In this document: one piece after another, positions 9,348 to 25,506 of the stretch | Layout: the number at the start of each line of letters is the position of its first letter | Numbering within the stretch: the stretch's first letter is position 1 | From: Promethearchaeota archaeon | GTDB taxonomy: Archaea > Asgardarchaeota > Lokiarchaeia > Sigyniarchaeales > SOKP01 | Assembly: GCA_048938855.1 (NCBI GenBank) | Contig: JBHLLT010000002.1 | Coordinates: 32,001 to 96,000 of the forward strand | Reading direction: 5' to 3' | DNA: 64,000 nucleotides | Position numbers and translations under genes: made by a program | Notes under the pieces: model-generated | The model's database searches: none | Seen by the model: the letters and a program-made list of their open reading frames with translations, nothing else | Told to the model about the DNA's origin: nothing

Positions 9348-9440
9348 GGCCCTTGACGGTTGGAGTGGTCTCTGACGCTGGGCTTCAAACCCAGTTATCC
9401 TGCGGAGGGATAGGGGTTCGATTCCCCTCGAGGGCCGCCA
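9348..9440 (+). tRNA. selC: tRNA-Sec (anticodon TCA at 9385-9387)
   Basis: 9-bp acceptor GGCCCTTGA/TCGAGGGCC, 4-bp T stem GGGG/CCCC (9/4 fold), long D stem with 4-nt loop, loop CTTCAAA, long variable arm, G73 and encoded CCA. Confidence 0.96.
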
Positions 9441-9452
9441 ATAATAATTAAA

Positions 9453-10829
9453 GTGTTTTTTATGGTTGATTTTAGCAAAATTATTGATTTTTTTAATAAA
9501 AAGAATATACCTGAAAATATGTTAAATAGAGGTCAGCTTGTTTTAAATGAGTTTTTAAGACCAATAAAAATATTTTTTGAACAAAAAGCTGCACCCAAGG
9601 ATCCTTGGACTGATGAACAAATAGAGTTCCTTCTTCAAGTTTTATCAAATATGGACACAGATAAAGACATTAATGCTGCTAGAGTAGGTGAAAGAGAAGC
9701 AAGGATTGCCTCAAAACTACATTTGAAGACTTCAGCAGGATTTTGTCATGGTGTTGGAAGAAGTGGCTTTTTAACAGCTGCTCAACCAAAAGCACCAGGA
9801 GGCTCAATAATGTATGAATTATCAAACTATTTAGCTCGAAATATATTGAGAGAAAATGGGTTACCAAACATAAAAGATGCTATAATAACACCTGTATGTA
9901 CAGGAATGTCATTAGCATTAGCATTAGGAGCTTTAAATCCTTGGCAGTGTGATAGTAATTCGGTTTATAAACGAACTGTTTTAGTTCCCCAGATAGATCA
10001 TAAATCACTTTTAAAATCAATTAACCTTATGGGTTTTAAGGCAAAAATAGTTCCAGGGAAGATTTTTGGAGATGCTGTAAGAATACCAATTGGAGATATT
10101 AAAAAAAATTTAGACGAAGATTGTTTTGCAATTATCTCAGTAACTAGCTTTTTTCCACCTCGAGAACATGATGATATAAAGGAAATTTCTAAATTTGCAA
10201 AAGAAAACAATCTTGTGCATATTGTCATTAACGCATATGGGGTTCAAAGTCCAGAATGGATGAAATTGATTCGTTCAGCAATAGATGCAGGAAGAGTAGA
10301 CGCTATTATTCAGTCTACAGACAAAAATTTTCTAACACCCGTAGGAGGAGCAATAATAGCATCACCTATAAAAGAAAATATAGTAAAGATTAGCCAAGCA
10401 TATGCTGGTCGTGCTTCTGCTACTCCAGTTGTGAATTTTCTAATTTCAATCTTATCATTGGGGATCTCTGGTTATCAAAAGTTAATTGAACAACAACAAA
10501 ATAACCGTAAAATTCTTGAAATAAAACTCAGAGCAGTTGCAAATAAAATAAATGAGAGAATACTTGATATTTATAATCCAGTTGCAGTCGCATTATCATT
10601 GGAAAACATGAAAGATGAGCATCTATATGCTCTTGGTGGAGCATTGTATAATTTAAGAGTAACAGGACCAAGAGTATATAATCCAAAAGATAATATATTT
10701 GGTACCTGTTGTAGTGATTATCTAACTCCATATATCGTAATGAATGCCGCAATTGGAGCAACTGAGAAAGATATAATTTCTGCTGTAGAGAGATTTGAAA
10801 AAGCATATAATCAAGTAGTTCAATCATAA
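9453..10829 (+). CDS. spcS: O-phosphoseryl-tRNA(Sec) selenium transferase (SepSecS)
   Basis: VGEREARI, HGVGRSG...QPKA.G, QSTDKNF.TPVGG, YAGRAS; likely ATG at 9462; directly follows tRNA-Sec. Confidence 0.95.
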   Translation: MFFMVDFSKIIDFFNKKNIPENMLNRGQLVLNEFLRPIKIFFEQKAAPKDPWTDEQIEFLLQVLSNMDTDKDINAARVGEREARIASKLHLKTSAGFCHGVGRSGFLTAAQPKAPGGSIMYELSNYLARNILRENGLPNIKDAIITPVCTGMSLALALGALNPWQCDSNSVYKRTVLVPQIDHKSLLKSINLMGFKAKIVPGKIFGDAVRIPIGDIKKNLDEDCFAIISVTSFFPPREHDDIKEISKFAKENNLVHIVINAYGVQSPEWMKLIRSAIDAGRVDAIIQSTDKNFLTPVGGAIIASPIKENIVKISQAYAGRASATPVVNFLISILSLGISGYQKLIEQQQNNRKILEIKLRAVANKINERILDIYNPVAVALSLENMKDEHLYALGGALYNLRVTGPRVYNPKDNIFGTCCSDYLTPYIVMNAAIGATEKDIISAVERFEKAYNQVVQS

Positions 10830-11787: not shown

Positions 11788-11962
11788 TGGGCCATCGGGG
11801 ATTTTCATGCTTTTTTTAATCAATCAAGCTTTTTGAACCCCGGATCTCAGGTTTTTACTTTCTCAGACAATTTTACTTAATGTATGTCCGATGGTCATTT
11901 ATAAGACCTGCGCTTGTTGACCAAGCACCTAAACCTTGTTAACCAAGCTAAGCAAATGGCCC
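11788..11962 (-). tRNA. tRNA-Ile(TAT) with three BHB introns (21/22: 11916-11939; 37/38 or 38/39: 11853-11898; 59/60: 11802-11831)
   Basis: Spliced 75-nt cloverleaf: GGGCCAT TT GCTT AGCTTGGTTA AAGC G CAGGT CTTATAA ACCTG AGATC CGGGG TTCAAAT CCCCG ATGGCCC A. It has A73, C4-G69 and a short variable loop. Confidence 0.85.
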
Positions 11963-20191: not shown

Positions 20192-20355
20192 GCAACGGTT
20201 GCCTAGCCCGGTATATGCATGGTGCATAAACGCACCAAGTTCGGAACGGCGCCGGCTTGGAGTGGAAGTTATCCCAGAAAGCCGGTGTGTGAATGCACTC
20301 GGGGGTTCAAGATATAAGAAAATACTTCTTATAAGAATAAATCCCTCCCGTTGCG
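20192..20355 (+). tRNA. tRNA-Ser(GGA) with three BHB introns (21/22: 20214-20246; 37/38: 20263-20279; 58/59: 20311-20340)
   Basis: Acceptor GCAACGG/CCGTTGC plus G73, anticodon arm CCGGC-TTGGAGA-GCCGG, long variable arm, T loop TTCAAAT after splicing; 84 nt mature. Confidence 0.9.
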
Positions 20356-24938: not shown

Positions 24939-25506
24939 TCATTCACCTCTTATTTTATCATCATACTCTCCATTGTCAATTCGTTTTTGAATAATCCTAG
25001 GATCCTCTCCTTCTACTGTTATACCTACTGACAATGCAGTTCCCAGCACTGTTTTTACTGCCGCTTTATAGGTCTTATCCAAAAATTTCTCTCTTTTACC
25101 TTCGACTACATTTTGAATTTGCTCAAGTGTCAAATTGCCAATTTTTTTCTCAGCTGTAGCAGATGTACCTTTTTCAGCACCAACTTCTTTAAGCAACAAT
25201 GATGCTGTAGAGGGTGTTTCAATGAAAATTTCAAACTGTTTTGTTTCTGGATCGCATTCTATTCTTACGGGTACAGTTAATCCTTTAAAAACCATCGTTT
25301 GCTTGTTTATCTCGTCCACTACGTCTTTAATATTTATACCTGTGGGGCCTACGGAGGGGCCTTTACCATTGCTTGACAAAAGCGATATGCTTTATGTAAT
25401 AGGCGGCCCTCCTGATGCATTTGGGGTCTAATCGAAACGATTATTAAAGATATACACTCCCACCAGTCACAAGAGCCTTAACAATAATTTTACCTTTATC
25501 ACTCAC
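24939..25506 (-). CDS. rpl11: Ribosomal protein uL11, spliced: exons 25506-25457, 25419-25399, 25362-24939 (164 aa)
   Basis: GGTGAG SD, then GTG. The spliced product reads [43 protein letters not shown]..., the canonical uL11 N-terminus; the rest of the gene is intact. Confidence 0.9.
25363..25398 (-). other. Putative BHB-type mRNA intron 2 of rpl11 (36 nt)
   Basis: Outer helix GGGCC/GGCCC, imperfect central helix GCCT/TGGT, bulges AT^T and AA^A; contains an in-frame TAA; removal gives CCT-ATA-GGC (P-I-G). Confidence 0.75.
25420..25456 (-). other. Putative BHB-type mRNA intron 1 of rpl11 (37 nt)
   Basis: Central helix TGGG/CCCA, bulges AG^T and AA^T, internal hairpin AATCG-TTT-CGATT; contains in-frame TAATAA; removal gives AGT-GCA (S-A). 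Confidence 0.78.

Follow-up and report, generated by a model that had tools for sequence, protein, structure and literature searches.

How an archaeon that lacks TiaS can stop a tRNA carrying U34 from reading AUG is the question raised by a tRNA-Ile(UAU) gene in the genome of a Lokiarchaeia archaeon, and a module in one of the gene's introns makes that question testable. The gene lies in a contiguous stretch of 64,000 nucleotides, analyzed as a whole (the window), to which the coordinates below refer unless a contig is named.

A tRNA-Ile(UAU) gene with three introns

The gene (11788..11962, on the minus strand, as are all of its parts) is 175 nt long, contains four exons, and encodes no CCA. 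Exon 1 (11940..11962; tRNA positions 1-21) is followed by a 24-nt BHB intron at position 21/22 (intron 1; 11916..11939). Exon 2 (11899..11915; positions 22-38) carries the anticodon TAT at 11903-11901, with positions 29-32 at 11908-11905, and precedes a 46-nt intron with a relaxed BHB at position 38/39 (intron 2; 11853..11898). The cloverleaf parse placed exon 3 (positions 39-59) at 11832..11852 and exon 4 (positions 60-73, including discriminator A73) at 11788..11801, on either side of a 30-nt BHB intron at position 59/60 (intron 3; 11802..11831). Neither ARAGORN nor Rfam called the unspliced gene. After removal of 24, 46, and 30 nt, the 75-nt cloverleaf was called tRNA-Ile(tat) with A73 by ARAGORN; it has a CU-UAU-AA loop and a short variable arm. 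The intron lengths, UAU anticodon, and A73 proposed in a sequence-only reading of the window were borne out by this call and by the orthologues. The spliced tRNA shares 56 identities with Ile(GAU) of the same genome and 52-54 with foreign Ile2(CAU).

The D-loop BHB has a central TGGT/GTCA helix that includes two G-U pairs, flanked by three outer and four inner pairs, and the T-loop BHB has a central TTCA/TGAA helix with five outer pairs and one mismatch before the inner helix. The anticodon-intron motif is relaxed, as had been proposed, with a central TTAT/GTAA helix whose 3' strand (GTAA; 11855..11858) was assigned by junction-register comparison and pairs with positions 33-36. The genome contains two splicing-endonuclease subunit genes, which would fit an enzyme of the two-subunit type. 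Over 11948-11913 (minus strand), the exon-intron start recurs as a 14-nt near copy at the end of the D-loop intron, an arrangement that looks like the duplication of a palindromic loop.

Splice register and anticodon identity

Seventy-five distinct orthologous tRNA-Ile(UAU) genes were collected. Most of these genes lie beside the same neighbor genes, and CTTATAA is present in all of the parsed orthologues (74/74), so the gene is not a chance occurrence. Two introns were parsed in 21 orthologues, three in 39, and four in 14. Having three introns is ordinary in this setting, given the 14 orthologues with four, about six further such tRNAs seen by eye in the genome, and the up to five introns per Asgard tRNA gene already published (PMC11291895; bioRxiv 10.64898/2026.10.13.758758). 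Orthologues without the D intron (L140 and L168, 2/75) or without the T intron (missing from most) display the predicted junctions uninterrupted; in L140 and L168 the junction of exon 1 is directly visible. The anticodon intron is kept in 75/75 orthologues, whereas the D, V, and T introns have been gained and lost. The junctions have the central helix and 3-nt bulges expected of archaeal BHB introns, and a complete 4/4 central helix is formed by 29/30 distinct D introns, 73/73 anticodon introns, and 22/24 T introns. The end bases of the anticodon intron vary among orthologues (A, G, or T first; A, C, or T last).

The 4/4 central helix of the anticodon intron is obtained with the junction at 38/39 in 73/73 cases and with five other registers in 0/73. 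Placement of this intron at 37/38 in the Lokiarchaeia gene was dropped, and because 38/39 alone gives a 4-bp central helix, the anticodon is UAU. The identity of the molecule as tRNA-Ile(UAU) is practically certain. It is extremely improbable that a different junction produces UAA or UAG, or that a CAU exon is hidden between nested introns: the anticodon BHB is relaxed and lies inside an A-run, the intron holds CATA, and the genome has a chance perfect CTTA/TAAG motif, but the registers for UAA or UAG give no central helix (0/73) and inconsistent loops, CATA reads CAGA or something else in many orthologues, the TAAG motif is not conserved, the short variable arm rules out Leu, and the genome scan found no second dedicated AUA-reading tRNA. 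Division of the 46-nt intron into 26 and 20 nt at the CTTA/TAAG motif, which would make four introns, was rejected with the unconserved motif falling in the variable loop.

Several features of the orthologues and of the surrounding DNA were recorded alongside this comparison. Four-intron orthologues (including L006, L008, L009, L020, L047, L056, L075, and L190) have extra sites at positions ~15-17, 45/46, and 58/59, whose presence or absence differs inside one genus. In L140 one acceptor pair has changed, and the insertion in the anticodon arm is longer and seems to be a double one. Across the orthologous genes, A9 accompanies C13 and U9 accompanies U13. At 9348-10829 (plus strand), tRNA-Sec is followed directly by the ORF that adjoins the Ile gene in most orthologous loci; we take this ORF to be SepSecS-like. 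A second multi-intron tRNA gene in the window (20192-20355, plus strand) encodes class II Ser(GGA); it is missed by ARAGORN and Rfam, and its anticodon intron has no ACA module of the kind described below.

AUA decoding in this genome

The sequence-only reading had raised the possible loss of tiaS. Consistent with that suggestion, searches of this genome (97% complete, not closed) with PF08489 and with a Heimdallarchaeum TiaS protein query found no TiaS, and there is no Ile2(CAU) among its ~42 tRNA genes, in which CAU is confined to the initiator and the elongator. The tRNA-Ile(UAU) gene is the sole dedicated AUA reader among the genes found. AUA is used at 35 per 1000 codons, and in orthologous genes 2529 exchanges of ATA sites involve ATT/ATC and 75 involve ATG. 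This exchange rules out reassignment of AUA to Met; judged by these alignments, AUA is Ile in this genome, as first claimed. An AUA codon created by the exon 2/3 junction of rpl11 had also been pointed out. By BHB register the junction is plausible (by eye), but it is uninformative because AUA is so frequent. The 5' end of rpl11 (25363-25506, minus strand) is seemingly interrupted by 37- and 36-nt BHB-like inserts, and for the second insert the most favorable register yields an AT|A junction with 3/4 central pairs (by eye). Elsewhere in the genome, the elongator tRNA-Met gene (G000:C71:17307-17423, minus strand) has an anticodon-stem intron with two CUGA (box D-like) sequences and a CAUACA stretch, and guide content in this intron is possible.

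UAU and TiaS across archaea

The distribution of TiaS was surveyed in one draw of 300 Asgard genomes, which are mostly drafts and whose families are not statistically independent. Searches recovered no TiaS from nine families, with 0/68 genomes in the family of the Lokiarchaeia gene; in the remaining families 171 genomes have it, and the TiaS-positive groups include Heimdallarchaeaceae, another Heimdallarchaeota family, and Jordarchaeales. Ile-type CAU genes track TiaS, and the three matches to such genes in TiaS-less families resemble chance or other tRNAs. UAU genes were recovered in 7/9 of the TiaS-less families with one search pattern, and additional ones came from further searches. UAU and TiaS/CAU are thus nearly mutually exclusive in the 300 genomes. 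The sole convincing exception is a complete Heimdallarchaeota genome that has an intronless tRNA-Ile(TAT) (L215, c2780-2852, G284:C1) as well as TiaS and Ile2(CAU). Among DPANN, the phylum of a Woesearchaeota genome had TiaS in 0/181 genomes, an intron-bearing UAU gene in 52/181, and Cbf5 in 176/181. Exact archaeal matches to the anticodon arm are mostly Promethearchaeota records, and one protein encoded in the window groups with a Lokiarchaeia record.

The UAU anticodon had been described as rare in archaea. For uncultured archaea, the seven TiaS-less Asgard families and 52/181 DPANN genomes contradict this description; far from being limited to a few odd species, the UAU route is taken by entire Asgard families and by many genomes of DPANN. 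The accompanying description of AUA decoding as eukaryote-like holds as an analogy and not as a eukaryote-inherited trait, because Heimdallarchaeia keep TiaS and Ile2(CAU). Heimdallarchaeia are usually placed nearest to eukaryotes. In all lineages, the anticodon stems of UAU genes are mostly R29-G30-Y31 and those of Ile2(CAU) genes mostly G30-G31. The sequences hint that the Asgard and DPANN UAU genes belong to one old family.

A conserved ACA module in the anticodon intron

Intron bases +3 to +6 (GACC; 11893..11896, minus strand) are complementary to exon G29-C32. They pair with these exon bases in 288/292 cells and with their splice-helix partners in about half. The predicted result is an alternative hairpin displaying U33-U34-A35-U36-A37, which is the computed minimum-energy form of the arm (-13.2 vs -11.6 kcal/mol for the splice fold). 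A 7-bp stem within the intron (11863..11891, minus strand; 11891-11885 with 11869-11863) adjoins an ACA box (11881..11883, minus strand) and resembles an H/ACA lower stem; it retains 6.9/7 pairs, against 4.5 in shuffled sequences, and includes two-sided changes. In 91/91 close orthologues, ANA follows the C32-facing G at a distance of exactly 13 nt (ACA in 89, ATA in 1, AAA in 1). Both adenines are invariant in 91/91, and the bases on either side vary. As far as these alignments can tell, the anticodon intron is conserved beyond the needs of splicing, and the module is very probably functional and under selection.

Cbf5 anchors on the two adenines of ANA, with a spacing rule of n+15 (PMC7075261). 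Counted by hand, U34 lies at n+15 from the box and U33 at n+14, so that both are within 15 ± 1 and the spacing favors neither. The module also resembles H/ACA RNA in having ANA just 3' of a lower stem and a 3' guide strand that pairs 5' of the target. The folds and alignments contain no upper stem, K-turn/K-loop, or 5' guide strand, so the module was not classed as a box H/ACA RNA; it may instead work like the lower half of one. No conserved C/D boxes were found in the anticodon intron. The module is not a general trait of the anticodon introns in this genome, since the others scored (by an automatic parse, with at least two rows mis-parsed) have no ACA at 13; one Ser intron has ACA at 14, overlapping its own splice helix. 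The literature covered, mainly titles and the openings of abstracts, with subscription journals mostly outside it, yielded no report of an ACA element in a tRNA-Ile intron, and nothing was found there tying Asgard TiaS to tRNA or Prometheoarchaeum tRNA to UAU. The conserved element is apparently undescribed.

The module in other lineages

In other TiaS-less Asgard lineages the intron is at 37/38, and the distance from the C32-facing G to ACA is unchanged from that of the 38/39 intron of Lokiarchaeia. ACA is at 13 in 15 of these UAU genes, at 14 in three, and absent in four (a tally made partly by eye), and 14 genomes of one further TiaS-less genus keep the same distance. The lower stem is intron-intron in Lokiarchaeia and intron-exon 21-26 in other Asgard lineages and many DPANN, where paired changes occur at 21 and 23. 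Two different lower stems would then lead to one geometry.

A set of 31 DPANN genes was chosen without ACA in the search pattern. ACA is at offset 13 in 15/31 and at any other offset in two at most, and the upper pairing reaches 3.55/4, against 1.73 in shuffled sequences. A hand count over the DPANN UAU genes gave ACA at 13 in 21/52. A metagenome scan had ACA fixed in its pattern and was therefore used for pairing only and not for ACA frequency. The formal pairing count, made on 38 genes, gave 79.5% vs 38-50% for slid partners. Two-sided changes in the exon-paired stem amount to 4 pairs, a number that was reached by 363/500 shuffles and that comes from related genes, which are not independent. 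The motif was found in 0/11 Ile2(CAU) introns; Ile2(CAU) genes are often intronless. Some UAU genes have no ACA: those of two Lokiarchaeia genomes (G030 and G034), that of Nanoarchaeum equitans, and roughly half of those in DPANN. The DPANN genomes G435, G447, G496, and G500, which have a UAU gene and in which Cbf5 was not found, are all without exact ACA at 13; these genomes are too few and too incomplete to count as evidence. In small Asgard genomes, the anticodon-arm sequence also occurs outside tRNAs in additional copies with hairpins after them (G052:C1:24974-25053 and G063:C118:7546-7622, with more in G112:C32, G099:C13, G143:C237, and G082:C23). These copies could be guide RNAs or chance.

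A proposed cis-directed pseudouridylation of U34

The ACA geometry, the presence of the Cbf5 set, and the documented need for U34 protection led us to propose that Cbf5 makes pseudouridine 34 on the precursor. In the unspliced precursor, the 5' portion of the anticodon intron would pair with exon 29-32 and stack on the lower stem, with ACA following. The precursor fold would mimic either a guide-substrate helix of the H/ACA kind or the tRNA mini-helix formed by T-arm and acceptor; in the mini-helix, C32 would act as G53, U33 as U54, and U34 as U55, and the 13 nt to ACA would equal the C61-C74 distance. Cbf5, together with Nop10 and Gar1, would bind ACA and the stem and convert U34, and perhaps then U36, to pseudouridine, after which the precursor would refold to the BHB form and be spliced. 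Pseudouridine 34 would be unable to accept the C5 side chain of Elp3-dependent pathways, and the tRNA would therefore read AUA and avoid AUG. We infer the refolding, the enzyme, the target base, and the effect on AUG.

The genome carries genes for Cbf5, Nop10, and Elp3, along with a Gar1-like gene. Cbf5 is known to modify both U's of an unpaired UAUG (PMC7075261) and has guide-independent activity on T-arm-like hairpins (PMC6138745, PMC11077068). Haloarchaeal tRNA-Ile U34 mutants acquire cnm5U and bind AUG (PMC3895270), and in yeast, intron-dependent pseudouridine 34 blocks ncm5U (PMC6582322). Counting against the need for such protection, the yeast ncm5U form barely misreads AUG in a reporter (PMC6582322). 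We lean slightly toward the mechanism as a whole. Its extension to archaea without TiaS (several classes of Asgard and a large part of DPANN), in which a self-targeting intron would form a minimal ACA-box element and recruit Cbf5 to pseudouridylate 34 (and 36), could as readily fail as hold.

The module may be real and have another target or partner, namely U33 or U36, Pus10, TruA, or TruD, or a separate trans-acting guide RNA, an explanation that we consider rather unlikely while taking it seriously. If pairing ends at C32, the first unpaired U from the 5' side is U33, which at n+14 is also inside the spacing rule, and the presence of Pus10, TruA, and TruD genes in the genome counts against Cbf5 as the enzyme. 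Binding of a trans guide across a tRNA intron has a precedent in sR115, and many DPANN have the hairpin without ACA. Against this, an internally placed ANA whose middle base is free to vary best suits Cbf5, and the module is restricted to UAU genes, in which U34 is the base that causes the difficulty. It is less likely still that U34 is unmodified, as in Mycoplasma mobile, with the intron hiding the anticodon or delaying splicing and the ribosome or tRNA body excluding AUG. M. mobile and a B. subtilis mutant do read AUA and not AUG via unmodified U34, and the alternative hairpin is stabler than the splice fold; however, this explanation does not account for an ANA that lies beyond the paired bases, never varies, and keeps a constant spacing, and the Elp3 of this genome could modify the spliced tRNA, as it does in yeast pus1 mutants. 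That the conserved sequence is a passive relic of a single old intron, serving splicing only, is very improbable: close orthologues do share ancestry, transitions give G-U-compatible changes for free, and a formal two-sided covariation test was not significant, but ACA and its spacing have outlasted the turnover of adjacent bases from one Asgard class to another and in DPANN, the partners that make up the lower stem differ between lineages, and +3 to +6 pair far better with the exon than with the splice-helix partner.

If the proposed pseudouridylation of U34 is correct, it would explain the constant retention of one intron whose neighbors are lost, extend the pseudouridylation machinery by an ACA-box type that acts in cis, offer a prokaryotic parallel, via a different enzyme, to eukaryotic intron-dependent pseudouridine 34, and give an archaeal tRNA intron a function in coding fidelity. 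If it is false, an ordinary further case of the known UAU strategy remains.

Comparison with known systems

UAU without TiaS and multi-intron Asgard tRNAs are already published traits. In the portions of PMC6000648, PMC3239211, and bioRxiv 10.1101/614032 available, UAU replaces Ile2 in Nanoarchaeum and Korarchaeum, and TiaS is lost as well in ARMAN; those portions contain no description of U34 chemistry or of an intron module. The tRNA-Ile3(UAU) of N. equitans, Ca. Korarchaeum cryptofilum, and ARMAN-2/-4/-5 likewise has UAU in place of Ile2(CAU), with TiaS and Ile2 reported lost in ARMAN, as in the Lokiarchaeia genome. An anticodon-loop intron is reported for Korarchaeum and ARMAN-2, and the N. 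equitans UAU gene has a C32-facing G and partial pairing, as does the Lokiarchaeia module. Unlike the published Ile3(UAU) genes, the Lokiarchaeia gene has its intron at 38/39 and two more, and the trait spans whole Asgard families. The published multi-intron Asgard tRNAs (PMC11291895; bioRxiv 10.64898/2026.10.13.758758) likewise have several BHB introns at non-canonical sites that are missed by standard finders; UAU and TiaS are unmentioned in those papers, whose focal families are not Lokiarchaeia. The tRNA-Ile2(CAU)/TiaS system depends on C34 and a tiaS gene, and neither is found in the Lokiarchaeia case.

Among eukaryotes, yeast tRNA-Ile(UAU) has the same anticodon, and its intron-dependent pseudouridine at 34/36 blocks Elp-dependent modification; C. 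merolae has the same three-arm intron layout and intron-dependent Pus1 activity. The enzyme of the eukaryotic UAU system is stand-alone Pus1, whereas the route proposed for Lokiarchaeia would use an ACA box and Cbf5. Archaeal H/ACA guides, including the sR115/Sso1-type guide for U35 of pre-tRNA-Tyr, resemble the module in having ANA after the lower stem, n+15 spacing, a 3' guide strand that pairs 5' of the target U, and an intron-containing precursor. The module differs from these guides in its predicted action in cis from the tRNA's own intron, in having no upper stem, K-turn, or 5' guide, and, in Lokiarchaeia, in the circular permutation of its lower stem. The intron of euryarchaeal tRNA-Trp is a box C/D guide that directs 2'-O-methylation, by fibrillarin, of its own tRNA's wobble base. 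That system uses fibrillarin 2'-O-methylation, whereas the Lokiarchaeia intron has no conserved C/D boxes; in both, as far as the proposed module goes, an intron would steer the modification of its own wobble base.
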